DNA of 64,000 bases from Anaerolineae bacterium (GTDB taxonomy: Bacteria; Chloroflexota; Anaerolineae; JAADDB01): the NCBI GenBank assembly GCA_015486845.1, contig WFQU01000129.1, positions 3,955 to 67,954 of the forward strand, written 5' to 3'. The notes beneath the pieces were generated by a model, which did no database searches, had not been told where the DNA came from, and saw only the letters and a list, made by a program, of their open reading frames with translations. The translations under genes and the position numbers were made by a program. This document shows, in pieces, positions 2,128 through 59,205 of this stretch (within the stretch, counting starts at the first letter, position 1; every line of letters starts with the position of its first letter).

Positions 2128-2503
2128 GAACGCTGATATCGCTGATGCATGCTGTTTCGACCGGCGATTAAAATCGCTGCTACGATTGCGAAACCTGCCT
2201 GCGCAGGTTATCTTTTAATCGCCGTAGGGCGATTTCGCAGGTGTTGCCCGCGACTTCCAATTGAACGCTGATATCGCTGATGCACGCTGTTTCGACCGGC
2301 GATTAAAATCGCTGCTACGATTGCGAGACCTGCCTGCGCAGGTTATCTTTCAATCGCCGTAGGGCGATTTCGCAGGTGTTGCCCGCGACTTCCAATTGAA
2401 CGCTGATATCGCTGATGCACGCTGTTTCGACCGGCGATTAAAATCGCTGCTACGATTGCAAAACCTGCCTGCGCAGGTTATCTTTCAATCGCCTTGGAAA
2501 AGG
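2128..2503. repeat. Tandem array of a 135-bp unit (two full copies plus about 0.8 of a third, near-identical) belonging to dispersed repeat family R1
   Basis: The unit gaacgctgatatcgctgatgcaYgctgtttcgaccggcgattaaaatcgctgctacgattgcgaRacctgcctgcgcaggttatctttYaatcgccgtagggcgatttcgcaggtgttgcccgcgacttccaatt recurs at 2128, 2263 and 2398. Each unit contains three short palindromes: gcgattaaaatcgc, acctgcctgcgcaggt and aatcgccGTAGggcgatt. Confidence 0.9.
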
Positions 2504-2509
2504 GTTCCA

Positions 2510-3463
2510 TCACGGCTTGAGCGTCGTGGCCACAATTACTTTATAGTCCAAGGGCTGGCTGATGAGTTTTTTGCTCAGCATCCAGGCGCTCACGTCTTTG
2601 ACCTCAGCCTCCGTAGGCAGTAAATTCACCGGGTAAGCCGGCACCTGATATTCCTTTTCGATGAAACCCGGCACCCGGCCTTTTTTCACCAGCAAAGGTT
2701 TGTATTTGTCGGGATGAGCATTGATCTCCGCGGATGCTTTGTACCACGCTTGCATAAATTTGGCTATATTGTGCGGCTTGGCGGCCAACGATTCAGTTCG
2801 AACAGCGAGCACAGATTGGGAAAACTGCGGATACTGGCTATCGTCCACAATCAGCTTCGCGCCTTTGGCGATAGCGCCGCTGGCCAGCGGCTCCGGCAAA
2901 GTCGCTGCAGCCACTTTGCCTTGCATCAAGAGCTCGAAACGCACCGGAATTTGCGTCACTTCGGTAATGCGAATATCCTTCGATGTCAACCCTTTCGCTT
3001 CCAACAGACGATCGGTAACATATTCGATGATAGTGTGCTGGGAAATAGCCACCGGCACGCCTTTCATAGCAGCCGGGCCGATGATATGGCCGCCGGGCGC
3101 GGCTAATATCCTGAACTGCGGCATTTTAGCCGTAGCGTGCATGAGCGTGCCGACAACTTTCAGCTTAGCTGTATCCTTATCAAACAGCCCCACGCTAATC
3201 AAATCCGTCAAAGCTCCGTCAACTTGCCCGGTCTGCAAAAGCGTGTCGCGTTCCTGGGCGCTTTTGACAAAAATCGCTTGCACTTGCAGTCCCTCGGCAG
3301 CAAAATAACCCTTATCTTGAGCCACGTAATAGGGCAGCGCGTCCATAATGGGCAATAACGCCACTTTAATGGATGTGTCTTCCTGCTTTTGACAAGCCAC
3401 CGTAGCCGGCAACAACATGGCTATAACGAGCAATAACAGCATCGAACGTTTCACGAAATACAC
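2510..3463 (-). CDS. ABC transporter periplasmic substrate-binding lipoprotein, NMT1/SsuA/TauA-like (nitrate/sulfonate/bicarbonate family)
   Basis: Signal peptide plus lipobox (LPATVAC) and an SsuA-like fold pattern. 317 aa. Confidence 0.65.
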   Translation of the reverse strand: MYFVKRSMLLLLVIAMLLPATVACQKQEDTSIKVALLPIMDALPYYVAQDKGYFAAEGLQVQAIFVKSAQERDTLLQTGQVDGALTDLISVGLFDKDTAKLKVVGTLMHATAKMPQFRILAAPGGHIIGPAAMKGVPVAISQHTIIEYVTDRLLEAKGLTSKDIRITEVTQIPVRFELLMQGKVAAATLPEPLASGAIAKGAKLIVDDSQYPQFSQSVLAVRTESLAAKPHNIAKFMQAWYKASAEINAHPDKYKPLLVKKGRVPGFIEKEYQVPAYPVNLLPTEAEVKDVSAWMLSKKLISQPLDYKVIVATTLKP

Positions 3464-3491
3464 CTTTCCTTTACAGATGCAGGCCCAAGTG

Positions 3492-4055
3492 TCACTTTCC
3501 CACCGTCACAACCAACGTGCCCTGGCTAACCTGGACTTCTTTCACTTTGAGTTCTTCGCCGCTGCCGGAAGCCAGCGCAGAGTTTAGCGCATCGGTCAAC
3601 GCCGAGCGAATCTGTGACGGGAGAGGCAGCGAGCCCAAATACGCTTCTTCGATTCTCACTTGCAAATGACCATCCTTCACAAACGGGGACAGTTTGGTGA
3701 CGACAGTGCCGTGCAAAGCGGTATTTTCCAGTTGGATATCACCCCGCAAATAAATGGCATCTGCCTCGAACCAAACGGTCGCGTTGGCCATGGGCAGATT
3801 TTTACCCGAGAGTTTGTGATGAAAATAAGAGGTCACCTCGGACTCCGTGACGGTCAGCCGGTAACTGTTGGCGCCGACTTTGTTCCAGGACTGTAGCTTT
3901 TTCTCCATGCTGGCAGCCGCTTTCTTGCTAATGGTGACTTTGCGGGCCGGGACAGTGGCTTTCGGTTTGGAACCGATAAGGCTGCACCCGGCGAAAATGA
4001 CCAGGAGTGACGCGAGAGTGACGATGACAGGGACAAAACGTTTGTGTAATCGCAT
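3492..4055 (-). CDS. Hypothetical secreted lipoprotein
   Basis: Internal start MRLHKRFVPVIVTLASLLVIFAGC (lipobox) preceded by an AAGGAG ribosome-binding site. No recognisable family. Confidence 0.45.
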   Translation of the reverse strand: MRLHKRFVPVIVTLASLLVIFAGCSLIGSKPKATVPARKVTISKKAAASMEKKLQSWNKVGANSYRLTVTESEVTSYFHHKLSGKNLPMANATVWFEADAIYLRGDIQLENTALHGTVVTKLSPFVKDGHLQVRIEEAYLGSLPLPSQIRSALTDALNSALASGSGEELKVKEVQVSQGTLVVTVGK

Positions 4056-4084
4056 GGCATGCTCCTTTTCTCTTGCCTCAGCGG

Positions 4085-4612
4085 CTACGAATGGCCGGCC
4101 GAGTCCGGTGCCCACTGTCCAATGGGCGGAAATTTATCCTCTTCGACCATCTGGATAAGTGATTGTAAACTATGCCGGGCGGCCTTGGCTAATGGCGGCG
4201 TAATCCACTTTTCGGCAATGGCTTCCTCGAATTCATCTTCATCCAAAATGTAGTAAGTGTGCCGATCCTGGCGCACCCACAAGTCCAGCTTCAAGTCGGT
4301 CACACAAAGCCGGTTCCCGCAGAAAATAGCTGGTGTGGCGATATCACAATAAAAACCGGTTAACGTTCTCTCTTTGTTATAAGTCTCGGTGATCGCGTAC
4401 CAATGATCCAGAAAGTAATAAGCCCGGCCATAATAAATATCTCCTGCTTGCGCTAACTGGATACCGTGATATTCACGCCCTGTACTTTGGTTGTGGTGTG
4501 GATAAGTCCACTCCACAACCACGTAATTGTCCTTTATCTCGATAGACGTATGGTTGCGGTAGACAACAATAATGCCAGGTAACCGGGTGTATTGAATAAA
4601 CAGATCATCCAT
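4085..4612 (-). CDS. DUF402-family protein (FomD/YgaC-like, RNase G/E-associated). The assignment is tentative.
   Basis: 175 aa. The size and aromatic-rich pattern (DHWYAITE...DLWV) recall DUF402. Confidence 0.4.
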   Translation of the reverse strand: MDDLFIQYTRLPGIIVVYRNHTSIEIKDNYVVVEWTYPHHNQSTGREYHGIQLAQAGDIYYGRAYYFLDHWYAITETYNKERTLTGFYCDIATPAIFCGNRLCVTDLKLDLWVRQDRHTYYILDEDEFEEAIAEKWITPPLAKAARHSLQSLIQMVEEDKFPPIGQWAPDSAGHS

Positions 4613-4739
4613 CTCTCTTCATTGCTCCTTGTCTGCTATCATTTTGCGCTTAGTAAATCATAAATCGGCATAAATGTCCAACACGGAGCATTTCCCCTTT
4701 AGCTATTCAACGCCTGCGAGGAGGTGCACTTCTAAACAG

Positions 4740-5016
4740 GGAGTTATCATGAGCCTATGGCACACCACAGCGGCTGAAAACGAAGCGGCTGGTGTCAAGC
4801 CTTTAGGTGGGTTGGTGGGTCTACCACCGGCTAAAGCCTCGATGCCGGTACGGTGGCGGGGTACGTCAAAGTTGCGTCCGCTGCCAAAAGGCTGCTCAAC
4901 ACTAGCCCCCTTTCAGGGGGCTTCTTGGCGACGTAGCACGGGGATTTGACCCCCGTGCGCTCGGGCGGAGAACGCTGTCGATTAGAAGTTCAACTTCTCG
5001 CAGAAGTTGAACTTCT
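4740..5016 (+). repeat. Composite dispersed repeat made of module S (gagttatcATGagcctRYggcRcaccacagcggMtgaaaa), the 200-bp module R2 and the terminal palindromic hairpin H
   Basis: About 85 to 90 percent identical to the copies at 22210..22400 and 50211..50471, and to the inverted copy at 16014..16200. It ends with GAAGTTCAACTTCTcgcAGAAGTTGAACTTC at 4985..5015. The track ORF 4674..4949 lies inside this repeat and is probably spurious. Confidence 0.85.
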
Positions 5017-5059
5017 TAAAGATACTCTGCGCCTTTGCGCCGCTGCGTCAACTGATTTT

Positions 5060-5150
5060 CAAGGGAGTTATCATGAGCCTACGGCGCACCACAGCGGATG
5101 AAAATTAAGATCAGCGTGCATCAGCGTTAATCTGCGTTCTATTTTCAGAG
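5060..5150 (+). repeat. Second, shorter repeat block: module S followed by leader module L' (gatcagcgtgcatcagcgttaatctgcgttctattttcagaggag)
   Basis: Same motif set as 50527..50590, 25390..25435 and 45308..45335. Confidence 0.8.
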
Positions 5151-5190
5151 GAGATAATTCTTGGATGCTTACCAAGACAGTTTTGGGCCG

Positions 5191-7811: not shown

Positions 7812-8756
7812 ATGAAGCCGGAGCCGGATATTCGCAATGTCATTGTCATCGGGTCGGGGCCGGCCGGTTTGGCTGCCGGCTTATATACCGCCCGTGCACA
7901 TTTAGAGCCCCTTTTACTAACAGGCAACGATATTGGCGGCCAAGTCTCGCTGACCTCGGAAGTCGAGAACTATCCCGGCTTCCCGGCAAGCATCACGGGG
8001 CCAGAACTCGTGCAAAAGATGCAAGAGCAAGCAGAGAAATTCGGTGTTGATGTGCGCATCGACACCGTAACAGATGCCAATTTGGACGTCTATCCATTTG
8101 AATTAACAACTTATGAAGGCACTTACAAAACAAAAGCTTTGGTAATTGCCACCGGTGCTACGCCACGTAAACTCGACGTTCCCGGCGAGGAACGGTTAAT
8201 CGGTCGTGGCGTTTCTTACTGTGCGACGTGCGACGGCTGGTTTTTCAACGGCAAAGAGGTCGTGGTGGTCGGAGGCGGGGATAGTGCGTTAGAAGAAGGT
8301 CTTTTTCTGACCCGATTCGCCTCTAAAGTTACCATCATTCACCGACGAGACAAACTGCGGGCCGGCAAAACACTGCAAAAGCGCGCCTTCAATAATGATA
8401 AGATCGCATTCATCTGGAACTCAGTCGTGGAAGAAATTATCGGCGACGAAAAAGTATCCGGCGTGCGGCTGCACAACAAGGTCACCGGGGAAGATTCTGT
8501 GTTCTCCACGGATGGCGTTTTCATTTTCATTGGGCACACGCCGAATTCGCAGCTTTTCCAGGAACAATTAGAGGTCGATGAACACGGATACTTAGTTGTC
8601 GATAGACATTACAGCACCAGTAAGGAAGGGGTCTGGGCCGCCGGCGAAATTGCTGATTCGACTTTCCGGCAGGTGGTCACCTCGGCCGGCATGGGTGCTT
8701 CGGCTGCGATCATGGTAGAACGCTGGTTGGGCGAGAAAGCGGCTGAAGAAGCATAA
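7812..8756 (+). CDS. trxB: Thioredoxin-disulfide reductase
   Basis: FAD-binding GSGPAG motif, redox-active CATCDG, and an NADPH-binding motif. The start was chosen at MKPEPDIRNVIVIGSGPAG. The annotated upstream ATG at 7737 or a GTG at 7752 are also possible. Confidence 0.85.
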   Translation: MKPEPDIRNVIVIGSGPAGLAAGLYTARAHLEPLLLTGNDIGGQVSLTSEVENYPGFPASITGPELVQKMQEQAEKFGVDVRIDTVTDANLDVYPFELTTYEGTYKTKALVIATGATPRKLDVPGEERLIGRGVSYCATCDGWFFNGKEVVVVGGGDSALEEGLFLTRFASKVTIIHRRDKLRAGKTLQKRAFNNDKIAFIWNSVVEEIIGDEKVSGVRLHNKVTGEDSVFSTDGVFIFIGHTPNSQLFQEQLEVDEHGYLVVDRHYSTSKEGVWAAGEIADSTFRQVVTSAGMGASAAIMVERWLGEKAAEEA

Positions 8757-8784
8757 AGCCGCTTTTCTATAGCCGCTACACCAA

Positions 8785-8822
8785 AAAGAGGCAGGTCTCC
8801 GTCGACGGAGACCTGCCTCTTT
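8785..8822. terminator. Perfect 38-bp palindrome (AAAGAGGCAGGTCTCCGTCGACGGAGACCTGCCTCTTT), a likely bidirectional terminator between the convergent genes trxB (+) and kbl-like (-)
   Basis: The palindrome is seen directly. It is flanked by A and T runs on both sides, as expected for convergent transcripts. Confidence 0.6.
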
Positions 8823-8847
8823 CAGTTAGAAATTCAACTTCTGAGCA

Positions 8848-10326: not shown

Positions 10327-11613
10327 CTAATCAATCGCCGGATCACACGGGAATTGCCGGCCCAAGAGCATAACCTGGACAATGGCGCCCGGCTCCACTT
10401 TGTCCCACGATTCGGGGATGACAGCTAAGCCGTCCGCCAAAACCATGGAACGCAAAATGCCAGAGCCCTGGTCACCGGTAAGAAAAGCTTGCCAGGCACC
10501 ATTATCGCGTTGCAGGCGTACCCGTAAATAGTGACGGCGGTGGTCTTTGCGCTTAATGCGGTTCATAAAGTGAGCATCGATGACTTGTCGGCGCCAATCG
10601 TGTCGATTCTGCATCTTAGCCATGGCTGGACGGGCAAATAGCTCGAAGGTAATCATCGCAGAAACCGGATTTCCCGGCAAGCCCAGCAGCGGAATGCCGC
10701 TGATTTGCCCCATGGCGGCCGGCTTCCCCGGCTTCATCTGGACGCGCCAGAAATGGATCTCGCCTTCTGCGGCCAATACATCTTTTACGACGTCGAAATC
10801 TCCCAACGAGACGCCGCCGGACGTGAGAATAAGATCAGCTTTGGCGTCCACGGCTTGGTGCAATTTCTCGGTGAGCGCGACGATGTTGTCTTTGGCAATG
10901 CCTAACGAGATTGGCAGGCCGCCCATGCGCAATACCTGTGCGGCATTGGCGTAACTGTTCGCGTTGCGAATCTGTCCCGGCCCCGGCGTCTCTTCCACAT
11001 CCACCAATTCATCCCCCGTGGCTAAAATCGCCACCCGCGGCCGGCCGACAACGGCAGTACGCCGGTAGCCTAACGCCGCCAGCATGCCGATTTCCTGCGG
11101 GCGCAACGTTGTTCCCGCCGGCAAAATGACTTCACCTCGTTGCACATCTTCACCGGCGGCGCGCACATTGCGTCCCGGCTTGACTGCCTTGAAAATAGTA
11201 ACCCAATCGCCGTCTCGCTCTGTTTGCTCGAACGGGACCACCGCTTCCGTTCCCGGCGGCACCGGTGCACCGGTCATGATGCGCACCGCCGTGCCCGGCG
11301 CCACAGGCTGGGTGCGCACGTAGCCCGCAGCCAAATTGCCGGCAATACGCAGTCGCACCGGCCGCTCAGCCGTTGCGGCACTAATATCAGCCATGCACAC
11401 AGCATAACCATCCATAGCGCTATTAGCCAAAGGGGGAATATCGTTTATCGCTACGATGTCACGGGCTAAAACGCGATCCAGGCCATCCGAAATGTCGATT
11501 TCTTCGGCCGGCAGAACAGTGAACAGACGCAAAAAACGCTCAATAGCGCCTTCCACCGAAAGCCATGGATACGATTCCACCATTTCTTGTTCATGTCGTT
11601 TTTTCTCCGGCAT
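10327..11613 (-). CDS. moeA: Molybdopterin molybdotransferase
   Basis: MoeA N-terminal pattern (DIPPLANSAMDGYAV) and the MoCF-binding domain (ILTSGGVSLGDFD). The start was moved to MPEKK at 11613. Confidence 0.85.
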   Translation of the reverse strand: MPEKKRHEQEMVESYPWLSVEGAIERFLRLFTVLPAEEIDISDGLDRVLARDIVAINDIPPLANSAMDGYAVCMADISAATAERPVRLRIAGNLAAGYVRTQPVAPGTAVRIMTGAPVPPGTEAVVPFEQTERDGDWVTIFKAVKPGRNVRAAGEDVQRGEVILPAGTTLRPQEIGMLAALGYRRTAVVGRPRVAILATGDELVDVEETPGPGQIRNANSYANAAQVLRMGGLPISLGIAKDNIVALTEKLHQAVDAKADLILTSGGVSLGDFDVVKDVLAAEGEIHFWRVQMKPGKPAAMGQISGIPLLGLPGNPVSAMITFELFARPAMAKMQNRHDWRRQVIDAHFMNRIKRKDHRRHYLRVRLQRDNGAWQAFLTGDQGSGILRSMVLADGLAVIPESWDKVEPGAIVQVMLLGRQFPCDPAID

Positions 11614-15655: not shown

Positions 15656-15690
15656 GCGCACACTCCCTTGAAAATAAACTTCTCTGGAGG

Positions 15691-15725: not shown

Positions 15726-16013
15726 CCGTCTTTGAAAAAAAGACCTCTCCCCTGGCTTGCCGCCCAAAGGGGCGGCAAGCCTCCCCCTCCCCGTATCGGG
15801 GAGGGGGAAAAGCTAAGCGCAGCGCCTTCAAATTAGTCGTGTCATTGCGAGCGAAGCGACAGTGTGATCCTCTTTTTGGTCAAGCAATCTCCAATGATAG
15901 TGAGAGAGAGTGCCACGGCCCTGCCGGGCCTCGCAATGACAAACTTCTCTGAAAATAAGTTGATGCAGCAGCGCCAAGGCACAGGGCGTCTAAAAAAATC
16001 AGGCCTCCTTTTA

Positions 16014-16200
16014 GAGGTTCAACTTCTTCAAGAAGTTGAACCTCTCCGGCGTTTTCCGCCCGAGCGCACGGGGGTCAAATCCCCGTGCTACGTCGCCAAG
16101 AAGCCCCCTGAAAGGGGGCTGGCGTTGAGCAGCCCGTTTGCAGCGGATGCTGCCTTGACGTACCCCGCCGCCGCACCGGAATCGGAACCGCATATCCTCA
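16014..16200 (-). repeat. Inverted-orientation partial copy of the composite repeat (hairpin H plus module R2)
   Basis: GAGGTTCAACTTCTtcaAGAAGTTGAACCTC at 16014..16044, followed by the reverse complement of the R2 core (ccgcccgagcgcacgggggtcaaatccccgtgctacgtcgccaagaagccccctgaaagggggct...). Confidence 0.8.
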
Positions 16201-18870: not shown

Positions 18871-20352
18871 TTGGCTGAATATATCGTTATGCCCCAATTA
18901 GGGGAGAGCATTGTTGAAGGAACGGTCAGCAAGTGGCTGGTAAAAGAAGGCGATCCGGTTAAACGCTACGACCCCGTTTTGGAAGTTGGCAGTGACAAGG
19001 TGGACACCGAGGTGACTTCCACAGCGGACGGGGCCATTCTGCGCATCGTGGTACCGGAGGGCAAGACGGTGAAAGCCGGCACGATTTTAGCTGTGGTCGG
19101 CCAGCCTGGCGAGGCAATTGGCGAGATTCCCGCAGCCATCGCGTTGCACGCTGCCGAAACAACCCCCGCGGAAGCAGCCCCACCATCACCACCGGCTATC
19201 ACGCCGGTTGTGGCCCGCATGGCTGCGGAACACAACCTGGATCTAATGAAAATCAAAGGTAGCGGCGCCGGGGGGCGGATCACCAAAAAAGACGTGCTGG
19301 ACTATTTAGCGCAACGCCAGGCAGCAGAGAAAGTGATCGAATTGCCGCCGTGGGAACAGCCCGGCAGCGGCGATCTCTTCAAGCCAACCGATCAATTCGT
19401 GAAAGAGGTCGTTTCAGCGAAGCCAGAACCGAGGGTTCCACCTCAGCCAGGCCAAAAAGCGCTGGCCATCAGTCCTGTGGTGGCTCGTTTGGCAGCACAA
19501 CACGGGGTGGATCTCAATGCCGTGCGCGGTAGTGGTGCCGGAGGGCGGATCACCAAAAAGGATATTTTGGCTTTCGTGGAAGGGCGTAAAACAGCGCCGG
19601 CCGCTCAGCCTGTGCCGCTCGCCACACCTGTTCCGCCGCCATCATTCATCGCGCCGGCGCCGGCGGCGGGTGAAGATGAAGTAGTTGTGCCGCTGACCCG
19701 CATGCGCCGGCTCATTGCGGAGCACATGGTGCTGAGTAAGCACACCGCACCCCATGCTACCAGTGTCATGGAAGCAAATTTGAGCAAAGTAGTAGCGCAC
19801 CGGGCCGCAAACAAAGACGCTTTTGCCGCCAAAGGTGTACGACTTACTTTCATGCCCTATTTCGTGCAGGCCACGGTGACCGCGTTAAAAGCCGTGCCGG
19901 AAATGAACAGCATTTTCCGGGAAGACGCGTTAGTACTGAAGCGGCGCATTCATATTGGCATGGCGGTGGCTATCCCCGACGGGCTGATGGTGCCGGTCCT
20001 TCGCGACGCGGATGAAAAGAACTTGTTAGGCTTGGCCCGGACGGTCAACGATTTGGCAGAACGGGCTCGTTTGGGTAAGCTATCCCCGGGTGAATTGGGA
20101 GGCAGCACATTTTCAATCACCAATCATGGCACTGGCGGCAGTCTTTTTGCGGCGCCAGTCATCAACCAGCCCAACGTGGGCATTTTGGGGATCGGCATTA
20201 TCCAGAAACGGGTTGTGGTAATCGACGATGCCATCGCCATCCGGCCGATGGTTTATTTGAGCTTGTCTTTTGACCACAGAGCCGTAGACGGCGCCGGGGC
20301 GGACCGGTTTTTGTTAGTCGTTAAAGAGACGTTGGAGAATTGGACAGCATAA
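18871..20352 (+). CDS. Dihydrolipoamide acyltransferase (E2) with one lipoyl domain, two peripheral-subunit-binding domains and the catalytic domain
   Basis: Lipoyl-lysine motif (VGSDKVDTEV). Two PSBD copies are present (PVVARMAAEHNLDLMKIKGSGAGGRITKKDVLDYL and PVVARLAAQHGVDLNAVRGSGAGGRITKKDILAFV). The catalytic DHRAVDGA motif is present. Confidence 0.9.
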   Translation: MAEYIVMPQLGESIVEGTVSKWLVKEGDPVKRYDPVLEVGSDKVDTEVTSTADGAILRIVVPEGKTVKAGTILAVVGQPGEAIGEIPAAIALHAAETTPAEAAPPSPPAITPVVARMAAEHNLDLMKIKGSGAGGRITKKDVLDYLAQRQAAEKVIELPPWEQPGSGDLFKPTDQFVKEVVSAKPEPRVPPQPGQKALAISPVVARLAAQHGVDLNAVRGSGAGGRITKKDILAFVEGRKTAPAAQPVPLATPVPPPSFIAPAPAAGEDEVVVPLTRMRRLIAEHMVLSKHTAPHATSVMEANLSKVVAHRAANKDAFAAKGVRLTFMPYFVQATVTALKAVPEMNSIFREDALVLKRRIHIGMAVAIPDGLMVPVLRDADEKNLLGLARTVNDLAERARLGKLSPGELGGSTFSITNHGTGGSLFAAPVINQPNVGILGIGIIQKRVVVIDDAIAIRPMVYLSLSFDHRAVDGAGADRFLLVVKETLENWTA

Positions 20353-22055: not shown

Positions 22056-22400
22056 CTAGAAGTTCAACTTCTTCAAGAAGTTGAACTTCTAGAACGGCAA
22101 CATCTGCAAAATCGCCCTACGGCGATTAGCATGCAACCTGCGTAGGCAAGTTTCGCAGCTGTGGCAGCGATTTCTAATCGCAGGGCGAAGCAGCCTGTGT
22201 TGACCTACGTCCCATTCCGGTGGGCCGGCCCCTTGCCGCCGCGGCGGCGGGGTACGTCGGTCCGCTGCCAAGAGGCTGCTCAACACCAGCCCCCTTTTAG
22301 GGGGCTTCTTGGCGACGTAGTACGGGGATTTGACCCCCGTGCGCTCGGGCGGAGAACGCTGTCGATTGGAAGTTCAACTTCTCGCAGAAGTTGAACTTCT
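22056..22400. repeat. Repeat cluster made of hairpin H (22056..22093), an inverted R1-family copy (22089..22200), an R2 copy (22210..22365) and a second hairpin H (22369..22399)
   Basis: The sequence ctaGAAGTTCAACTTCTtcaAGAAGTTGAACTTCtag is followed by acatctgcaaaatcgccctacggcgatt..., then the R2 core and GAAGTTCAACTTCTcgcAGAAGTTGAACTTC. The track ORFs 22089..22286, 22161..22394 and 22280..22494 lie inside the repeats. Confidence 0.85.
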
Positions 22401-22514
22401 TTAAAAAATTGACCACGCATGTTGTTGTTGCCTGGAACGTTGTCGGCGTTGGGGATAGTTTTGCGCCAATCAGCCATGACATAACGGAGTCCATTTTTGA
22501 CTATTGTTTTTTTA

Positions 22515-22566
22515 TCTGCGTGCGCAGCCTGCGTTAATCTGCGTCCTATTTTTATTTTCAGAGGAG
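22515..22566 (+). repeat. Leader module L (ttatctgcgtgcgcagcctgcgttaatctgcgtcctatttttattttcagaggag), positioned 75 nt upstream of the fabD start
   Basis: Near-identical blocks occur at 50715..50782 (where it supplies the secG Shine-Dalgarno) and at 59135..59203. Confidence 0.8.
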
Positions 22567-22641
22567 ATTGATTTTAATCTCTGCACCTTAGCGGCTCCGC
22601 GTCGAGCTTTTAGTTCCGGCCTGTCCCGGTTAGGAGAATTC

Positions 22642-25212: not shown

Positions 25213-25284
25213 CGTGTTGCCGGAGGCTACATAACGGCTCAGCCCAGGTCAAATGGAACGCTGATGGGCCCAGCGACAAAAGTC

Positions 25285-25435
25285 ACGGCAACAATCTGCA
25301 AAATCGCCCTACGGCGATTAGCTTGCAGCCTGCGCAGGCAGGTTTCGCAGCTGTGGCAGCGATTTCTAATCGCCGGACAAGGCAGACTGCGTTAATCAGC
25401 GTTCTATTTTCCAGAGCATTCTATTTTCAAAGGAG
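25285..25435. repeat. Inverted R1-family copy (caacaatctgcaaaatcgccctacggcgattagcttgcagcctgcgcaggcaggtttcgcagctgtggcagcgatttctaatcgcc...) fused to leader module L' (gcgttaatcagcgttctattttccagagcattctattttcaaaggag), which ends 10 nt before the next start codon
   Basis: Direct comparison with 2128..2503 (reverse complement) and with 22089..22200. Confidence 0.8.
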
Positions 25436-25444
25436 ATTGTTTCA

Positions 25445-26767: not shown

Positions 26768-26999
26768 GAACAGCCGCGGCAAGACAAGTGGCTCAGAGTA
26801 AACATTCAAGCCACACCGTGGTTTGGTGTAAGCTATTCAAATCCTCAACATGAGGACGCTGAGGACCGCAGATAAAGCAGAAAAGATCAGCGAAAATCAG
26901 CGTCATCAGCGTTCCATTTGATCTTAGCTGAGCACGAACGATCCTGTTTCTAAATATGTCCGTTCAATCAATATCTCACAAGCAAAAAGGAGGTTATTC

Positions 27000-31868: not shown

Positions 31869-32190
31869 TTCTCGCCTCCTTCGAAAATAGAACCCTGATG
31901 TGCGCTGATCCTATTCATTCGCAGCGCTGTGCCGACCTACGTTGCCGTTTTAGTGACCACACAGGTAGTCGCTTGGCGGTGAGCGCAGCGAGCCGTCCTT
32001 TCGGCATGGCTTTAGCCGACATGCCCGGGGCCAAAAGCCGCCGGGCTACATCAAGTTCAAGCCCGCTCAAGCGGGCTGCTTCACCCCAGCCCCCTTCAGG
32101 AGGCACCTCATCATGTAGCACGGAGCTTTGAGCTCCGTGTGCGCCCCGAAAAACAGCTTCATAGAACTGCGTAGTTTGACGCTGACAATT

Positions 32191-44765: not shown

Positions 44766-45363
44766 CTCTATTTTATTGAGACATGGGCACAAAAGTATAG
44801 CATAGCAAAACGTTTTCTCAAAAGCGTAGTTGCTAATAACCTCGGGCTATTGGTATAGCCAGTCGTGACTCATCCGAAAACAGGCTCACCGCGGAATACG
44901 CAACGTGCGCCGCGGTCAAATTAGTGTGATTTTAGCAACTATTTGCTTCCGAAACTGTAACTGCTCGTTTCTGATAAAACAGTGGCGCCGGCACGGGCCG
45001 GCGGCCGGCCTGTGCCGGCACGCAGACAGGCGCACCATAGCGGCTGAAAACGCCCCCTATCCCCCAACCTTGGGGGGAGCAACATGCCCCAGCCCTCCGA
45101 AAAAGGGTCTTGGCTACGCCGGATCTGGTTCGTTGCGGGCAGCACTCCCTCTCGCCACGCTGCGGTCTGCCGCTATCCTGTTGGCAACGAGCGCATAGCC
45201 CGTGTTGTCGTCGTGCGTTGGTATGCGCTTAATCGTGGCTAATCGTATGAGCCGGGTCTGATAACATGAATTTTCGTGTTGCTGGCGTAATATATTTGAG
45301 ATCAGCGTTGATCAGCGTTCTATTTTCAAATGAAACAAAATTGCTGGTCGCAAGCAGCTTTGT

Positions 45364-48358: not shown

Positions 48359-48454
48359 GCGCTGATCAGCCAACAGGAGTGAACCGCGTCCTGTTTTGTT
48401 AGTCATTGGCGTTGCCCTCCAGCAATGTGCTGGGGGGCGATTTTTTGCCGGGGA

Positions 48455-48556
48455 GTTATCATAAGCCCGACAAGGTGGAGAAGTTCAACTTCTGTCAGAA
48501 GTTGAACTTCTCCACCGGAAAGTTTTCTTGACGCTTTGCGTCGGCTATTTTCAAGG
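48455..48556 (+). repeat. Repeat block made of a partial module S, hairpin H (48479..48510) and leader module T (ttttcttgacgctttgcgtcggctattttcaagggacagc), ending 6 nt before the birA ATG
   Basis: GAAGTTCAACTTCTgtcAGAAGTTGAACTTC. The T module also occurs at 52955..53020 upstream of the PBP gene. Confidence 0.8.
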
Positions 48557-48562
48557 GACAGC

Positions 48563-49342
48563 ATGGAAGAACGAATACCGCCGTTGACGGACGCCATTGC
48601 TTGGCGTTGGCGACGGCTGGACAAAGTTACATCCACGCAGGATATTGTCCGGCGTGAGGCGGAAGCCGGCGCGGCAGCGGGGCTAATTTTGTGTGCTAAT
48701 TGGCAATCCGCCGGCCGGGGGCGTTTGCAGCGCCGTTGGGAAAGCGCCCCCGGCGCCGCGCTGCTCTGTTCACTGTTGGTGCGGCCAATAGCGTTGCCCG
48801 CTCAGCAGGCCGCCCATTTGACCATGATCACAGCGTTAGCACTGGCGGATGCCGTTGCCGAGACGGCCGGCGTGCAGCCGGATATCAAATGGCCCAACGA
48901 TCTATACCTGCAAGGACGCAAATTAGCCGGCATCCTGACAGAAACGCAGATAGACGCTAATAATGTGCAATGGGCAGTCATCGGCTTCGGGCTGAACTTG
49001 CGGCGCAGTTTTCCAGAAGGGCATCCCTTGGCCCGGCAGAGTATTGCTTTAGCCGAAGTCTGTGGGGCCGTGCCGGAACGAGAAACTTTGTTGCGGGCCG
49101 TCGTGTTGCATTTAGCCGCATCTTGTCGCCGCCGGCGCGCGGGCTGGTCTCCGCACAGAGCATGGCAGCAGCGATTGCTGACACTGGGCCGCGAGGTAAC
49201 CGTCACAGCGGGGGCTAAACGATGGCACGGCACCGCCGTGGGAACGACCTCCGCCGGCGCGCTGCAACTGCGTCTGCAAAATGGGTCGTTACGAGAAATA
49301 TGGGCAGGTGAGGTCACGCTAAGTGCCTCGATAGGAGATTAA
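48563..49342 (+). CDS. birA: Biotin-[acetyl-CoA-carboxylase] ligase (catalytic and C-terminal domains, no N-terminal HTH)
   Basis: BPL motif (QSAGRGRLQRRWESAPGAALLCSL), KWPND. Confidence 0.8.
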   Translation: MEERIPPLTDAIAWRWRRLDKVTSTQDIVRREAEAGAAAGLILCANWQSAGRGRLQRRWESAPGAALLCSLLVRPIALPAQQAAHLTMITALALADAVAETAGVQPDIKWPNDLYLQGRKLAGILTETQIDANNVQWAVIGFGLNLRRSFPEGHPLARQSIALAEVCGAVPERETLLRAVVLHLAASCRRRRAGWSPHRAWQQRLLTLGREVTVTAGAKRWHGTAVGTTSAGALQLRLQNGSLREIWAGEVTLSASIGD

Positions 49343-50028: not shown

Positions 50029-50210
50029 GGACCTTTGCGGGTAACGAGATAGCAAGTTTTTTTGACGACGTGCTAATTCTATGTGGGTAGTGCTTGCAAG
50101 GGTACCCTTTCTCTGTGTATAATGTTCTTTCACGCGTTAAGCGGATACGTAGACACGGCGATTTATTTACAGCCGGCTTAAGCGAGGAGAAACGGTCGTT
50201 ATTGAGGAAA

Positions 50211-50782
50211 TTGTCACAAGCCCGCCACAGCGGCTGAAAAACTGCGGCTGGTGTAAGCCTTTAGGTGGGTTGGTGAGTCTATTACCGACTAAAGCTTCGA
50301 TTCCGGTACGGCGGCGGGGTACGTCAAGGTAGCGTCTGTTGCCAAGAGGCGACTCAACACCAGCCCCCTTTCTGGTGGCTTCTTGGCGACGTAGCACGGG
50401 CCTTTGACCTCCGTGCGCTTGGGCAGGGAACGCCGTCGATTAAAGTTCAACTTTTTGAAAAAGTTGAACTTCTTAAAGGAGACCTGATTTTGAAGGGACT
50501 GTTTCCGTATTGCCTGCGTAATATATTTGAGATCAGCGTTAATCAGCGTTCTATTTTCAAGGGAGTTATCATGGGCCTGCGGCACACCACAGCGGATGAA
50601 AACCTATGGCTGGACTCGAGCCTTTAGGCGGTTTTGTAGCGTTACCCCCGGCTAAAGCCTCGAGTCCGGCGCAATGGGAGCTATTTTCAGGGGAGAATCT
50701 GTTACTAATTTCTTGACCATTGTTTTTTATCTGCGTGCGCAGCCTGCGTTGATCTGCGTCCCATTTTTATTTTCAGAGGAGG
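50211..50782 (+). repeat. Largest repeat cluster in the window. It contains module S with the R2 copy (50211..50440), hairpin H (50443..50471), a second S with leader L' block (50510..50610), and leader module L (50715..50782), whose AGGAGG is the secG Shine-Dalgarno sequence.
   Basis: Direct alignment with the copies at 4740..5150 and 22160..22566. The upstream part of track ORF 50674..51012 is repeat sequence. Confidence 0.85.
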
Positions 50783-50790
50783 TTTTGAGA

Positions 50791-52683: not shown

Positions 52684-52701
52684 ACACGGTAACATTGGTG
52701 A

Positions 52702-52733
52702 GACGTTCAACTTCTCAAAGAAGTTGAACGTCT
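52702..52733. repeat. Hairpin H variant with compensatory outer-stem changes (GACGTTCAACTTCTcaaAGAAGTTGAACGTC)
   Basis: Same invariant core as the other copies. The outer base pair has switched from A:T to C:G. Confidence 0.85.
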
Positions 52734-52954
52734 TCACCGGAAAGCTCCGTGCTACGTTAATGGGAAGCCCCCTTCAGGGGGCTGAAGTCACGCAGCCCGC
52801 TTCAGCGGGCTTGGACTTGCTGTAGCCCGGCGGCTTTAGCCCCGGGCAGGTTTGCGGTGCGGCTTCAATTGCGGTTGTGATCAGCGGCAATGAATTAGGT
52901 GCCCCTGATGCGGCAGATTTAATCCTGAGACGGCAGGTCACGGACCTGCCTGGA

Positions 52955-53020
52955 ACGCGGCAAAAAGCTTTTTTGACGCTCGGCGTCTTTGCGGCTCAGC
53001 GTCGGCTATTTGCAAAGGGA
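52955..53020 (+). repeat. Leader module T (ttttttgacgctcggcgtctttgcggctcagcgtcggctatttgcaaagggag), ending 13 nt before the PBP1A start
   Basis: Homologous to 48521..48556. It supplies the GGGAG Shine-Dalgarno sequence. Confidence 0.75.
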
Positions 53021-53033
53021 GTCATAGAACGTT

Positions 53034-56000: not shown

Positions 56001-56165
56001 GGGGGAGCTGGGAGTAATCCCAGCGGAACCCGGCTACCAGTCGGCCCCATTTGGTCCTATCGCCGACCACAACAGCAACCAGTAGCTACCCTGCCAGGCG
56101 CCCGTCCGCCCGAGCTGTGGGCTGAGGGCCAGGCCCGAGAGCGTCAAGGGCCAAGAAAGACATGA
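53034..56165 (+). CDS. Class A penicillin-binding protein (transglycosylase plus transpeptidase) with a C-terminal extension of about 300 aa, beta-rich and probably Ig/Fn-like
   Basis: GT51 motifs (EDRSFYTNPGVN, GGSSITQQL) and transpeptidase motifs SxxK (GSSFKP), SxN and KTG (AKTGTTND). 1043 aa. Confidence 0.9.
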   Translation: MQNIDLVRIIRRRRGRRVRHQSISVPGWTWRLTIANIAVVIAVVVSLLMVSGGTATAVYLHFARQLPDPSAIETKQEKFETVRIYDRTGKHLLYEAIDPRPYRGDRTYEPLRDISPWLQKATIALEDRSFYTNPGVNVRGIARAFFANLQGQSVQGGSSITQQLIKSVLFSYHERVSRSFTRKIKEVIMAVEITRRYPKNKILEWYLNYNFYGNAAYGIEAASRIYFDKPAKDLDLAEAAMLAHLPQYPALNPINNPIDAKRRQKKVLQAMVSAGYITQAQADAAFAEPLDVRKSAAERYHINDAPHFALYVLHELDHRYNTPQDPFRIWKEGLVVYTTLDYDLQKQAEKIAREHIKALEADKKVDRNAHNAAVVVLRPSTGEVLAMVGSLDFYNNAINGQVNMVTANRQPGSSFKPFTYMTGFAGKFSPASMVLDVRTVFPDPQTGVYVPENYSRTYHGPQSLRQALQRSLNIPAVWLMSQVGVRNVLKTAHKMGITTLNQDYYGLSLTLGGGEVKLIDMAYAFGVMANNGYMAGKPVPVDQQRLGYRVLNPVSILLVKDKDGKVIDQFTKPEITQVITPQLAYMMNNVLSDPKPRPMTFGRFAKYLQLPDGRPVAAKTGTTNDFRDAWTIGYTPQIVTGVWVGNANNDAMNHISGAVGAAPIWQDVMKYALRDTKPMSFTEPPGIVHMDICWPSGLLVTDACKQVHAVQKDIFLPKNVPTKPDNVWQVFRINRQNGKLATPYTPPELIDEKIFEILPPHADDWIRQAHVPQPPRQYDDTYANVVLNGDTVIAQPRPYAYVHEMVEIRGNARAGRGYHILLGQGLAPKTWQQIGPDHWNHVSNNVLEYLDTRTFPDGVYTLRLAVLNGSGEVNDIPIVIDNTPPKVEITSPTYDELFVKEDDEWVMVQVNATDQWAMDKVIFSIDGTDFATSTVPPYNQRWNIVISDTKVYTETRWLTVKAFDKAGNETDSDPLPIRVISKKKKLPAEGGAGSNPSGTRLPVGPIWSYRRPQQQPVATLPGARPPELWAEGQARERQGPRKT

Positions 56166-56169
56166 TAAT

Positions 56170-56967
56170 ATGCGTTTACCTTTAATTTTACTGACCAACG
56201 ATGACGGCGTGGACGCGCCGGGATTGCTGGCGCTCCGCCAGGCGCTTGTCGATATCGCCGAAGTGGTTGTTTTTGCGCCCAGCCACAATTGGTCCGCGGC
56301 CGGACACACGAAAACGATGCATAAGCCGATGCGGGCTTATCCGGTCACGCTGGCCGATGGCTCGCCGGCTACGGCGACCACCGGCGCGCCTTCGGATTGT
56401 GTGGCGTTGGCGCTGCTGGGATTATTGGACCGCAAGCCGGATTTGGTCATTTCCGGCATCAACCTGGGCGCTAATTTAGGTTTCGATATTACATATTCCG
56501 GCACAGTGGCCGGTGCCATGGAAGGGGTCGTGGCCGGCATTCCCGGCATCGCTTGTTCCCAGGAATTCGACAAAGACAGCACTCGGCCCGATTTTGGGTT
56601 GGCCGCGCAAGCGTGCCGTGAGGTGATTCATCGTGTATTGTTACACGGATTGCCCGACAAGATTTTTCTGAACGTTAATGTTCCATTGCACTCGGCTATC
56701 CAGCCACGCATCCGCATTAGCCGCTTGGGGAAACGGGTCTACCGGGACAAATTAATCGTCCGGGAAGACCCGCGTGGGCAGCCTTACTATTGGATCGGCG
56801 GTGAAGCGCCCACCGGTGTTTATCAATCGGGAACCGATGTCGCTATTCTACAGGAAGGTGATATTTCCGTAACCCCCCTTTCTTTGGACCTGACGGCTAT
56901 GGAACTCATGGATGTGCTGAAAAGTTGGCGCTGGAAACGAAATCTATCTAGTATCAAAAATCATTGA
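56170..56967 (+). CDS. surE: 5'/3'-nucleotidase SurE
   Basis: SurE N-terminal motif (ILLTNDDGVDAPGL). 265 aa. Confidence 0.9.
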   Translation: MRLPLILLTNDDGVDAPGLLALRQALVDIAEVVVFAPSHNWSAAGHTKTMHKPMRAYPVTLADGSPATATTGAPSDCVALALLGLLDRKPDLVISGINLGANLGFDITYSGTVAGAMEGVVAGIPGIACSQEFDKDSTRPDFGLAAQACREVIHRVLLHGLPDKIFLNVNVPLHSAIQPRIRISRLGKRVYRDKLIVREDPRGQPYYWIGGEAPTGVYQSGTDVAILQEGDISVTPLSLDLTAMELMDVLKSWRWKRNLSSIKNH

Positions 56968-57860
56968 CGGTATATGGAGGCCTACACGTGCACAGATCGG
57001 CTGCTGGGGTGATTTTGCCCGCTGCTAAAACGGATGTAGCCCAAGAAGGATTATTGCTGGCTTTTGGGAGCTTCGTCGCCGGCATACTAATATTAATGCT
57101 TGTGATCAAGCGTCCGTGGGGTATCGTTTCTTACCTCTTACTGCTGATCGCCATTCTCGTTACGGCTGTGGCCGCACGCTTGGCATACCGCAGTTACGCA
57201 CTGATGCGGTTGCGGTATCAAATCAATCGCGATGCGGTTTTCATTTATTGGGGGTGGAGCCGGTACACACTGCCGCTACCGAACATCGAGGGCATCAGAG
57301 CACAGCGCACGCCAGAAATAGAGCCACCGCTTTCCCGCTGGCAGGCTATTTGGCGTTGGCCGGCGGCGTTTGTCGGTCGTACCTTAACGGCAAACGGCCC
57401 TGTGTTCGTTTTAGCCAGCCAGCCCACGCCCCAGCAGTTGCTCCTGGAAGTGAATCGGGGCATACCTTGCGCCCTTTCCCCGGCCGATCCGGAAGCATTC
57501 CTGCAAACACTGTCCATTCGCCATCACCTGGGCCCTAATCGGCGCCTGGAAGCCGGGTTCTCAGCGCCGGTTTTATGGCGGGCGCCTTTGCTGCACGACC
57601 GCTTAGCGCTCTCTCTCCTTCTGACCGGATGGCTGCTACTTTTTGGATTACTAACCTACTTGACCTGGCATTGGCCGGCAGCGCAGTGGAGCCAGGAGCA
57701 GAGAGCACTATTGCTAATAGCGGCTATCATTTCGTTGGTGAATAGTGTGGCCGGTCTTTTGCTCTACGCGTTACAACGTTGGGAAAGTTATTTACTCTGG
57801 AGCGCCACTGTGCTAATCAACGGCATTGCGTTCATGGCACTCTTTTTAATTCCGGGCTAA
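56964..57860 (+). CDS. Hypothetical polytopic membrane protein, possibly of the bacterial PH-domain (YdbS/YdbT-like) type
   Basis: Multiple transmembrane helices and no strong family motif. The start is uncertain. Confidence 0.45.
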   Translation: MTVYGGLHVHRSAAGVILPAAKTDVAQEGLLLAFGSFVAGILILMLVIKRPWGIVSYLLLLIAILVTAVAARLAYRSYALMRLRYQINRDAVFIYWGWSRYTLPLPNIEGIRAQRTPEIEPPLSRWQAIWRWPAAFVGRTLTANGPVFVLASQPTPQQLLLEVNRGIPCALSPADPEAFLQTLSIRHHLGPNRRLEAGFSAPVLWRAPLLHDRLALSLLLTGWLLLFGLLTYLTWHWPAAQWSQEQRALLLIAAIISLVNSVAGLLLYALQRWESYLLWSATVLINGIAFMALFLIPG

Positions 57861-57861
57861 A

Positions 57862-58692
57862 ATGTGGCGCTCTCCGTGGTGCGTGGGTGCGTTCATCAGC
57901 AGTTGCATCGTAAGTGCGGCGTACTGGCGGCGTGATCTTTCCCTTAGCGGCCTGTTCGCAGCGTTCCTTTTGGGATTATTCGTTTATGTCGCCGGCGGCG
58001 TCGTGTGGAGCATTGTTTTGGTCGCATTCTTCCTTTCCGCCTCGGCGCTCTCACATGTGCAAACGGCCAACAAACGGAGCGTGATGATCGCATTTGCCAA
58101 AGGCGGGCAGCGGGATGCGGCACAGGTATTAGCTAACGGTAGTATCGCACTGTTAGCGGCATTGTTTGTGCTCTGGTCAGGCCGGTGCGGTCTGGGCAGC
58201 AACACAGCCTGGCTAATTTTCTTGGCTTCTCTTGCCGGGGCCACAGCGGACACCTGGGCCACAGAAATTGGCACGCTTCGGCCGGGAGAGCCCCGTTTGT
58301 TGACGACCTTGCAATCCGTGCCGGCCGGTCGTTCCGGCGGCGTGACCTGGCTGGGCTCGCTTGCGGCGCTCGGCGGAGCAAGCTTCATCACTTTGACGGC
58401 GTGGGGCGCACTGCTATTGTGGCCGGGGCCGTGGCGATTTTCCGCCGAGCTGGCTATATGGGGCATTCTCGCCGGCCTGGTCGGCTCCTTTGTGGATAGT
58501 CTCCTCGGCGCCACCCTGCAAGCCCAGTATTTCTGCCCCCGTTGCGCAAAAATCACCGAAGCCCGCGTGCATCATTGCGGCACGCCGACCATTTACCGGA
58601 GCGGTTGGCGCTGGCTGAACAACGATTGGGTGAACTTCTTCAGTCTGTGTGCCGCTGCCGTCGTGGTCATCTTCGGCTCCCTGCTTTTCTGA
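57862..58692 (+). CDS. DUF92/TMEM19-like integral membrane protein. The assignment is tentative.
   Basis: About 270 aa with 6 to 7 transmembrane helices and a KGGQRDAAQVLANG motif, consistent with DUF92. Confidence 0.5.
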   Translation: MWRSPWCVGAFISSCIVSAAYWRRDLSLSGLFAAFLLGLFVYVAGGVVWSIVLVAFFLSASALSHVQTANKRSVMIAFAKGGQRDAAQVLANGSIALLAALFVLWSGRCGLGSNTAWLIFLASLAGATADTWATEIGTLRPGEPRLLTTLQSVPAGRSGGVTWLGSLAALGGASFITLTAWGALLLWPGPWRFSAELAIWGILAGLVGSFVDSLLGATLQAQYFCPRCAKITEARVHHCGTPTIYRSGWRWLNNDWVNFFSLCAAAVVVIFGSLLF

Positions 58693-58704
58693 GAAGACAT
58701 CATG

Positions 58705-59205
58705 AGACTACGGCCTGCCTTGTGCGCTGCGCGCGGACAGGCACACCATAGCGGATGAAAGTCGGCCGATAGCCGGTAGGCGTTCGCCGTTAGCAAATAT
58801 ATAAGCGGACGTTGCTGGAGCATTAATCGTGGGGAGCTGAAGCCGCACCGAAAGTGCCTGCAGCCAGGCGACCACCTACGTGGTCGCGACGACGCCAACG
58901 CACAAGAGCGAGACATTCAACTTCTGAGAGAAATTGAATGTCTGCACTGCGGTTGAAACCGCGGCACAGGAAACCGGCAAAGCAGTTCGCCCGTGCGTAG
59001 TGCAGTTTTGGCTGCTGGCAGCTGGAGCTTAGCCTTTTGGCAGCCTGGAAGCGTCGACACCGGCTAAAGCCTCGACTCCAGTGCTGGGGAAAGTGTCGCA
59101 CTTTTTTCGCGACGACATCTTCGGGATCGTTTTTTGACCGTTGTTTTTTTATCTGCGTGCGCAGCCTGCGTTTATCTGCGTCCCATTTCATTTTCAAGGG
59201 AGGGC
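58705..59205. repeat. Repeat cluster made of an S-like module (58705..58760), hairpin H variant GACATTCAACTTCTgagAGAAATTGAATGTC (58912..58942) and leader module L (59135..59203)
   Basis: Alignment with the other copies. It marks the boundary of an islet that looks lower in GC. Confidence 0.8.

Follow-up and report, generated by a model that had tools for sequence, protein, structure and literature searches.

Canonical repetitive extragenic palindromic (REP) elements carry a conserved 5' GT[AG]G tetranucleotide at the hairpin foot (PMC3733652, PMC6006769). REP systems are defined by the REPtron layout and by the co-variation of REPs with their REP-associated tyrosine transposases (RAYTs) (PMC2817692, PMC6006769). 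Here, we describe intergenic repeats in a 64,000-nt stretch of DNA from an Anaerolineae bacterium (Chloroflexota; contig WFQU01000129.1, positions 3,955 to 67,954), hereafter the window. The repeats comprise a short hairpin, module H, the accessory modules R1, R2, D4 and S, and the leader modules L, T and L''. Our comparisons suggest that a clade of RAYT-like Y1 (HUH) transposases has H as its cognate REP, because RAYT-like genes in related genomes are bracketed by H.

The closest counterpart is the proteobacterial REP/REPtron/RAYT system (E. coli REP, RayT/YafM). As in this system, H is a mostly extragenic palindrome of about 33 nt, apparently with many dispersed copies, its stem is kept by compensatory changes and the positions of its copies differ between related genomes. 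A single-copy Y1/HUH gene is bracketed by the palindrome, and a diverged transposase is accompanied by a diverged palindrome. However, H lacks the 5' GT[AG]G guide, forms a perfect 15-bp stem without a bulge and has palindromic arms. Whereas REPs are described as species-specific (PMC6006769), H is essentially one sequence in genomes labelled as three orders. The H-linked RAYT also differs from its proteobacterial relatives, in that it scores just below the NCBIfam equivalog cut-off and usually resides inside restriction-modification-type operons.

When comparing the larger composites with the bacterial interspersed mosaic elements (BIMEs) of E. coli, there is a resemblance in general architecture. 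Both join REPs to conserved non-REP motifs in a few recurring orders and are located between genes of housekeeping operons; here, the order is S-D4-R2-H and then L. The composites of S, D4, R2 and R1 are comparable to the extra-palindromic-unit (extra-PU) motifs of BIMEs. On the module level, the accessory modules of the window (60–190 nt) are much longer than those motifs and hold several hairpins, H does not occur in regularly alternating orientations, and R1, L and T are found without any REP.

TnpA-Y1 subclass 2.6 and class 3 REP-like structures (Quentin et al. 2018, PMC6006769) likewise consist of Y1 genes flanked by non-GTAG hairpins that are present in high copy elsewhere in the genome. 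These structures, however, were described in Bacteroidetes, Acidobacteria and others. Neisseria Correia elements and the pneumococcal BOX and RUP repeats are similarly modular, hairpin-rich and intergenic, and end up in the 5' or 3' untranslated regions of housekeeping genes. Correia and RUP elements, which move by DDE-type transposition, have defined terminal inverted repeats and target duplications, whereas neither feature was found here. An initial annotation of the window had drawn parallels with both BIME/REP mosaics and Correia elements. The former is upheld by the RAYT-like genes bracketed by H in relatives. The latter, and with it a comparison to miniature inverted-repeat transposable elements (MITEs), is not supported, as the repeat finder found no terminal inverted repeats other than copies of H. 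We conclude that the system works like REP/BIME; it departs from canonical REPs in the absence of a GTAG foot, and the nested palindromic arms, the conservation across orders and the leader-type partners are unusual. In the literature searched, we found no published description of H, or of RAYT/REP in Anaerolineae; one paper mentions GTAG repeats in a Chloroflexi species.

Module H is a covarying hairpin of many Chloroflexota genomes

H has the form AGAAGTTCAACTTCT-N3/4-AGAAGTTGAACTTCT, which corresponds to 33–34 nt with a 15-bp stem and a loop of 3–4 nt. The window contains eight full copies, and H arms (15-mer, ≤2 mismatches) match 15 times versus 0.05 expected from shuffles. These copies, a degenerate copy and a single arm are listed below without strand.

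4984..5016: perfect H joined to the 3' end of R2 (repeat finder; fold –14.3 kcal/mol)
16013..16045: H in which A>G is compensated by T>C; reverse R2 follows
22058..22090: perfect H, left boundary of an H-R1-R2-H composite
22368..22400: H, right boundary of the H-R1-R2-H composite
48479..48511: perfect H after a canonical intrinsic terminator (48411–48450) and before a birA-like gene
50441..50473: H variant whose loop-proximal pair is CTTTT/AAAAG; it adjoins R2 directly
52701..52733: H in which A>C is compensated by T>G, located 18 nt past a stop codon; reverse R2b follows
58911..58943: diverged H carrying 5 substitutions; both sides of the stem differ at two positions, and one pair is broken in the fold
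4701..4733: degenerate H (65% identity; family D2), left edge of an S-D4-R2-H composite
8828..8842: single H arm beside a bidirectional terminator

As single-stranded DNA, H folds at –14.3 kcal/mol with a z-score of –7.9. The stem is kept by compensatory change: in the stem alignment 95.4% of cells are paired, and 10 of the 15 pairs have changed on both sides. None of 500 shuffles reached the covariation score or the paired fraction of this alignment, and shifting the partner columns drops pairing to 37–60%. The rows were selected as distinct stems, and three of them are sequences of a variant hairpin, H'.

Taken alone, either arm of H forms a 15-bp palindrome (AGAAGTT-C/G-AACTTCT). This nested symmetry is also present in H' (L110:4967–4999) and in the single palindromes at L120:7975–7989 and 8628–8642, where L-numbers denote loci fetched from public genomes or metagenome-assembled genomes (MAGs). 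Variant copies of H retain pairing at the level of the hairpin and lose the symmetry of the arms, for example AGACGTTC.../...GAACGTCT. The order of the arms is constant, C and then G, at an offset of 18 nt in 110 cases and 19 nt in 6. The tetranucleotide at the foot varies (TTAG in 19%, GAAG in 13% and GTAG in 3% of feet), with only the AG of the stem constant. No T run is found 3' of H. A canonical intrinsic terminator was therefore rejected as an identity for H; true hairpin-plus-T terminators occur separately.

A scan for the H core in a one-genome-per-species collection revealed at least 98 H loci. Among the matches listed, all hosts are Chloroflexota MAGs labelled Anaerolineales, Anaerolineae, Ardenticatenales/-aceae, Promineifilaceae, Promineifilales or Ca. 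Leptofilum, and the H-bearing taxa fall into two classes by NCBI taxonomy. As anticipated by the initial annotation, the modules are thus not confined to this locus; R1, L and S also occur at other loci of close relatives. A relaxed search of about 0.9 Mb of fetched DNA yielded 190 copies of H, compared with 0 in shuffled DNA. The flanks of H differ between genomes, most copies elsewhere being solitary 33-mers with unrelated surroundings, and the conserved unit is therefore the 33-mer itself. Viral-contig scans gave one H match.

With crude open reading frame (ORF) calls, the gene context of H is tandem in 71 cases, convergent in 12 and divergent in 8, and 9 copies are apparently inside ORFs. 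The median position is about 22 nt past the upstream stop codon, with the next start codon shortly after. H has a density of about 1 per 8 kb in the window, and other genomes show about one additional site for every 36 kb; a genome-wide copy number of hundreds is an extrapolation from the densities in the window and the fetched loci. Across the at least 98 loci, no protein family is generally enriched beside H among the matches listed, and RAYT is the only recurrent enzyme adjoining it.

In MAG BC3.16 (L007, L009, L028, L029 and L064), H is part of an extended imperfect palindrome, GGGTTCGTTCGTTAATAACTTGGGATTT-H-GGAACTGCAAAGTTATTTTTGATTGAACCC. The extension is lineage-specific, and its AAGTTAT flank motif is also found at the start of the S module of the window.

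RAYT-like transposase genes are bracketed by H

The initial annotation proposed looking for an IS200-like RAYT beyond the locus, and this search was positive in related genomes. A phmmer probe with E. coli RayT gave a sole, weak match (E = 0.032), the L004 gene, which was later confirmed. L004 contains a Y1 transposase gene with two frameshifts and two H-like hairpins on each side, its stop codon lying inside an H. The locus is from a MAG, so that the frameshifts may be assembly errors, and the protein was repaired before scoring. The repaired protein reaches 38 bits on Pfam Y1_Tnp (cut-off 23) and 73.6 bits on the NCBIfam REP-associated tyrosine transposase model. NHYHLL and GRYK/GRFK motifs can be read in the RAYT-like sequences, and a sequence comparison with solved structures gave no match. 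Thousands of homologues of about 187 aa, roughly 8000 in all, were returned by a database search, several of them named RayT by JGI or originating from Anaerolineae/Ca. Leptofilum.

L004 and eight further fetched contexts were examined. In 7 of these 9 independent contexts, the RAYT-like Y1 transposase gene is directly flanked by H. Intact 187-aa homologues with H flanks are encoded in L105, L106/L107, L108/L109, L112/L113 and L122/L123. In L105, a complete Ca. Leptofilum chromosome, one H lies 19 nt before the RAYT start and another 3 nt past its stop. The L106/L107 gene is surrounded by tandem arrays, with 10 copies of H upstream (52-nt period) and 9 downstream (62-nt period; L106:9476–9975, 10580–11109 and L107:1–346). 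These two arrays differ in H subtype, one having the asymmetric arms described above and the other the consensus.

The RAYT of L110/L111 (P0223) is bracketed by the other hairpin, H' = AGAAACCAGGTTTTT-N3-AAAAACCTGGTTTCT, which shares with H the 15-3-15 design and the AGAA...TTCT foot. RAYTs with 66–89% identity to the L004 query carry H, whereas P0223, at 59% identity, carries H' (a single variant case). On either side of the L120 RAYT, only single AGAAGCCTGGCTTCT palindromes are present. A single RAYT bracketed by H and a diverged RAYT with a diverged hairpin correspond to the REPtron layout and to REP/RAYT co-variation.

In eight of the nine lineages, the RAYT genes are found inside restriction-modification-type clusters on the same strand (L112:6829–15122, L120:5064–13918, L110:1558–9826, L106:6291–14198, L108:3870–12189, L109:39–5192, L122:2504–9278 and L004:1–7032); L105 alone has no such neighbour. 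The gene is located between hsdM/hsdS and hsdR (in L120 with a 4-nt overlap of its start and the hsdS stop), or has an SNF2/PLD helicase on one side and an MmeI/Eco57I-type methylase on the other, or is flanked by an SNF2 helicase with an SMC-like ATPase and by an N6_N4 methylase. PADLOC contains no model for these RAYTs.

Accessory modules form mosaics around H

Sensitive self-BLAST assigned about 3.0 kb of the 64 kb (approximately 5% of the window) to repeated DNA, almost wholly intergenic. The repeat finder recovered repeat families at all ten sites of the initial annotation. Further sites were found at 31880–32142 (L in reverse complement and R2b), 26880–26925, 45002–45100 (part of S), 15660–15690, 8828–8842 and 4701–4733. 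The same modules appear in varying orders and orientations (pairs I1–I6), as had been proposed. Other parts of that description needed revision. Rather than nearly every intergenic gap, modules occupy 11 of the 37 gaps that measure 60 nt or more (crude ORF calls), around a third, and are absent between 33 and 44 kb. Pairwise identity is 70–97% rather than 85–95%. The placement between same-strand genes does not extend to 15995–16184 and 45002–45329, which are in divergent regions, or to 4701–5156, which is antisense to both neighbours. Finally, the hairpin-rich character ascribed to all modules is true of H, D4 and R2, weak in R1 and absent from L, T and L''. The accessory modules of the window are as follows.

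2125..2529, minus strand: three R1 units of 135 nt, each an R1 body with the L-like end ATCAGCGATATCAGCGTTC, upstream of pgi (family D3)
22096..22173, plus strand: partial R1 body (repeat finder)
25280..25438, plus strand: R1 body and L, a ~158-nt insertion relative to the orthologous gap in sister genome L101, extending to the Shine-Dalgarno sequence of the 440-aa gene
4840..4982, plus strand: R2, multi-hairpin
16047..16184, minus strand: R2
22240..22367, plus strand: R2, truncated at the 5' end
50298..50440, plus strand: R2
32019..32142, plus strand: R2b (an R2 subfamily) with no adjoining H; contigs L115 and L116 end inside or just before it
52734..52851, minus strand: R2b beside H
4787..4848, plus strand: D4, a long hairpin of 62 nt; further copies at 50245–50306, 50608–50669 and 59020–59081
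5055..5104, plus strand: S (GGGAGTTATCATGAGCC..CACCACAGCGGATGAAAA); other full copies at 4731–4780 and 50553–50602, and a 98% identical copy in L006
45026–45050, 48453–48478, 50216–50240 and 58737–58761: partial copies of S

D4 (z –4.2/–5.2) and R2/R2b (z –2.4/–3.1) fold better than their shuffles, R1 only weakly so (z –1.6). The annotated R1 length of 135 bp was confirmed by the three tandem units. Sub-threshold CRISPR-DR28 matches fall inside this array, which was rejected as a clustered regularly interspaced short palindromic repeat (CRISPR) array because its identical 135-nt units have no spacers.

The composite S-D4-R2-H (about 290 nt) is present at 4731–5016 and again at 50216–50473, there with only the 3' end of S. 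R2 and H are joined in a fixed register: the junction CGTCGATTAG-AAGTTC is common to L013, and a near-identical one, CGTCAATTAG, is found in L071. H marks both ends of two composites (22058–22400, and 4701–5016 with its degenerate left H). Their 280-nt spacers show no end-to-end pairing and most copies of H are solitary, which sets them apart from REP doublets forming hairpins (REPINs). Relative to genes, R2 with H is co-oriented in 2 cases, antisense in 3 and in a divergent region in 1, without bias.

A small peptide encoded by S (MSLRHTTADEN) was considered and rejected; every difference between copies is non-synonymous, the copy at 48453 has ATA in place of ATG, and the frames end differently. 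A 110-aa ORF called over H and R2 matched only itself in a protein-database search. No R2 was found in viral contigs, where two S-pattern matches in phage coding sequence are probably due to chance.

Leader modules abut translation starts

The leaders share one build: two or three ATCWGCGTT-like 10-mers, then AU-rich CTATTTTCA, and then GGAG. The copies are located as follows.

50502..50568, plus strand: L (ATCAGCGTT x2 + CTATTTTCAAGGGAG), unstructured
5105–5156, 45271–45329 and 26880–26925 (small, L-like), plus strand: other copies of L
31880–31910, 2110–2150 and ~15660–15690 (short motif), minus strand: other copies of L
50709..50784, plus strand: T, ending at the secG Shine-Dalgarno sequence; others at 22494–22569 and 59130–59203 (z +0.6 to +1.2)
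48528..48568, plus strand: L'' before the birA-like gene; second copy at 52989–53029 before the PBP1 gene

The folding of L, T and L'' is no stronger than that of shuffled sequences (z –0.9 to +1.2). The leaders face the downstream gene at 9–10 of 11 sites, and in at least seven cases they end at a Shine-Dalgarno sequence, namely those of pgi, the PA14/PMT gene, the 440-aa gene, the OCD gene, birA, secG and the PBP1 gene. Directly 5' of the start codons of these same genes stands the end motif CTATTTTCARRGGAG; it occurs 10 times in the 64 kb, compared with about three occurrences at gene starts across about 0.83 Mb from other genomes. A sigma-70 promoter was rejected as an identity for the leaders, as the spacing from TTGAC-like elements to TATTTT is 12, 19, 28 or about 50 nt and none was reported by the consensus scan. 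A metagenome scan with the L pattern found one locus, L099, where an ATG of another organism is preceded by an L-like sequence.

Leaders are therefore a class separate from the hairpin modules and are not explained by the REP model. They are most likely portable cassettes, acting as an unstructured 5' leader or as a protein-binding site, which would spread with or beside the other modules. Tandem AATC[AT]GCG repeats with a 9–10-nt period were also observed upstream of genes in other Anaerolineae/Ardenticatenales MAGs (L025:1547, L090:115, L090:102(-), L094:391(-), L026:197 and L058:2744). These repeats have the short motif of the window leaders and may form a binding-site array.

Modules turn over between sister genomes

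Modules other than H match close relatives only, at non-orthologous sites. L006 holds L, S and the sequence after S at 90–98% identity, and short L-like stretches are present in L058, L026 and L099. We compared two sister genomes, L101 and L102, whose dihydrolipoyl dehydrogenase (E3) is 91% and 84% identical, respectively, to that of the window. The gap from E3 to fabD is 772 nt long and filled with modules in the window, whereas it measures 76 nt in L102 and holds a PHP-domain gene in L101. Between nusB and the next gene, the window has 233 nt with R1 and L, as opposed to 75 nt without modules in L101. Conversely, L102 holds one R1 copy in the gap between E2 and E3, which is empty in the window. 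Because orthologous sister gaps lack the modules and the R1 of L102 sits in a gap that is empty in the window, the accessory modules are recent lineage-specific insertions that vary between related genomes.

Public contigs from this population or related ones break at the repeats: L115 ends at window position 32106 and L116 at 32010, both at R2b, and L013 ends 12 nt after an H. Multi-copy repeats are expected to stop same-population contigs in this way, and H and R2b appear to break short-read assemblies of this group.

The window and its genes

The window is a contig from the chromosome of an uncultured Chloroflexota MAG of Anaerolineae type. Its E3 is identical to a protein on contig JALTDV010000395.1 of MAG GCA_027008065.1, and locus L100, from the same contig, aligns to window positions 10464–31870 with 2 mismatches. 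The best named relatives of E3 are from Anaerolineaceae, at about 65% identity. The gene content is ordinary housekeeping (pgi, pyruvate dehydrogenase E1/E2/E3, fabD/fabG, nusB, moeA, POR, birA, efp, secG, PBP1 and dnaJ). In line with the initial annotation, there are no transposase genes among the genes of the 64-kb window. No tRNA or tmRNA genes were found in it. The Rfam search that had been proposed returned 0 matches in the window at gathering score, and no relevant match at E-value thresholds either.

Canonical sigma-70-like promoters and hairpin-plus-T terminators were found elsewhere in the window by consensus scan. At 8785–8822, a perfect 17-bp inverted repeat with flanking A and T runs lies between convergent genes and looks like a bidirectional intrinsic terminator; its sole Rfam match is a spurious microRNA. 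Within the E2 gene, the direct repeat GGTAGCGGCGCCGGGGGGCGGATCACCAAAAAAGA occurs at 19258–19292 and 19528–19562, 270 nt apart and 89% identical. Its probable source is a duplication of E3-binding or linker domains, with no connection to the intergenic modules.

Origin of the repeats and alternative explanations

The intergenic repeats are, in our assessment, probably a REP/BIME-type system of an Anaerolineae-lineage genome, with H as the core and accessory modules of younger age. R2, in its fixed register to H, as well as D4, S and R1, are younger hairpin-rich pieces added around H in this lineage. By analogy with the biochemistry of E. coli TnpA-REP and IS200/IS605, the genome would encode, outside the window, a RAYT that binds the H hairpin on single-stranded DNA at replication forks. 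This RAYT would cut and rejoin H, and thereby disperse H and adjacent DNA into intergenic sites. Tandem duplication and recombination could then expand the copies and build the mosaics.

Several points weigh against this model. We infer the cognate RAYT of the window's own organism, since none lies within the 64-kb window, and the RAYTs found reach 71–78 bits on NCBIfam REP_Tyr_transpos, under its 80-bit cut-off, with an alignment that spans the full model. H is devoid of the 5' GT[AG]G foot of canonical REPs, and its near-identity across orders is unusual given the species specificity described for REPs (PMC6006769). Some copies of R1, L, T, S and D4 stand apart from H (for example at 2125–2529, 25280–25438 and 45271–45329), and these modules have no direct tie to RAYT activity. 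R1, R2 and D4, with 4–6 copies each, show very little covariation, and the pairs of filled and empty sites are too diverged to set junctions or target duplications.

The modules could instead be selected cis-acting RNA elements, with H, R2 and D4 as mRNA stabilisers, processing sites or terminators and L and T as translation leaders. The usual position of H, about 22 nt past a stop codon and near the next start codon, would suit such a role, as would leaders that are co-oriented with their gene, abut the Shine-Dalgarno sequence and are unstructured, as translation initiation regions should be. D4 copies keep their pairing through G-U wobbles on the forward strand, a sigma-70-like promoter at 50094–50123 would transcribe the whole 50216–50784 array as a secG leader, and E. 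coli REPs have such secondary roles (PMC6006769). However, the lack of orientation bias argues against a strand-specific RNA role for R2 and H, the 4701–5156 composite is antisense to both neighbours and sister-genome orthologues do without the modules. H is not followed by a T run and matches no Rfam family, canonical hairpin-plus-T terminators are separate, one of them just upstream of an H, and the tight bracketing of RAYT genes by H is left unexplained. We therefore regard an RNA-level origin as unlikely. Even the symmetry of H admits another reading, in which H and/or the ATCWGCG repeats are double-stranded binding sites of a conserved host protein (nucleoid, regulatory or uptake-signal-like) and the link to RAYT is secondary. 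Palindromic arms of 15 bp are typical of dimer-bound sites, their symmetry is kept in H' and in the L120 AGAAGCCTGGCTTCT palindromes, the H sequence is nearly identical across orders, and AATCWGCG repeated in tandem about every 10 nt is found upstream of genes in several genera. Yet variant copies keep the hairpin pairing and break the symmetry of the arms (AGACGTTC.../...GAACGTCT), the arm order is always C then G, no candidate binding protein was found and no family but RAYT is enriched near H, which makes this reading quite improbable.

Composites that are bounded by H on both sides (22058–22400, and 4701–5016 with a degenerate left H), and whose presence varies between sister genomes, would also be expected of Correia-like MITEs of a DDE-transposase insertion sequence, with H as the terminal inverted repeat. 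This origin is very doubtful, given that most copies of H elsewhere are solitary 33-mers with unrelated flanks and no further terminal inverted repeats were found. No DDE transposase is encoded in the window or is recurrent near H, where the only recurrent enzyme is the Y1/HUH transposase. A more speculative extension, to which we give little weight, concerns H and RAYT themselves. They could be an old, vertically inherited and domesticated system of Anaerolineae and Ardenticatenia, with a host function tied to restriction-modification/defence loci or to single-stranded DNA processing, and the window lineage would also have spawned portable leader cassettes before housekeeping genes. This idea stems from the 33-nt sequence that is nearly unchanged in genomes labelled as three orders, the conserved nested arms and the RAYT genes in restriction-modification-type operons in eight of nine lineages.

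REP/RAYT systems have been studied almost only in Proteobacteria. A REP-like hairpin with essentially one sequence across a large, mostly uncultured Chloroflexota radiation offers a deep-time case in which to ask whether REP, RAYT and host form a long-lived vertical partnership. The window lineage shows a REP core growing a BIME-like mosaic to about 5% of the window. As some modules lie directly before the start codons of housekeeping genes such as pgi, secG, birA and PBP1, they could affect expression. A model of H would help to annotate the repeats of this group, which appear to break metagenome assemblies.

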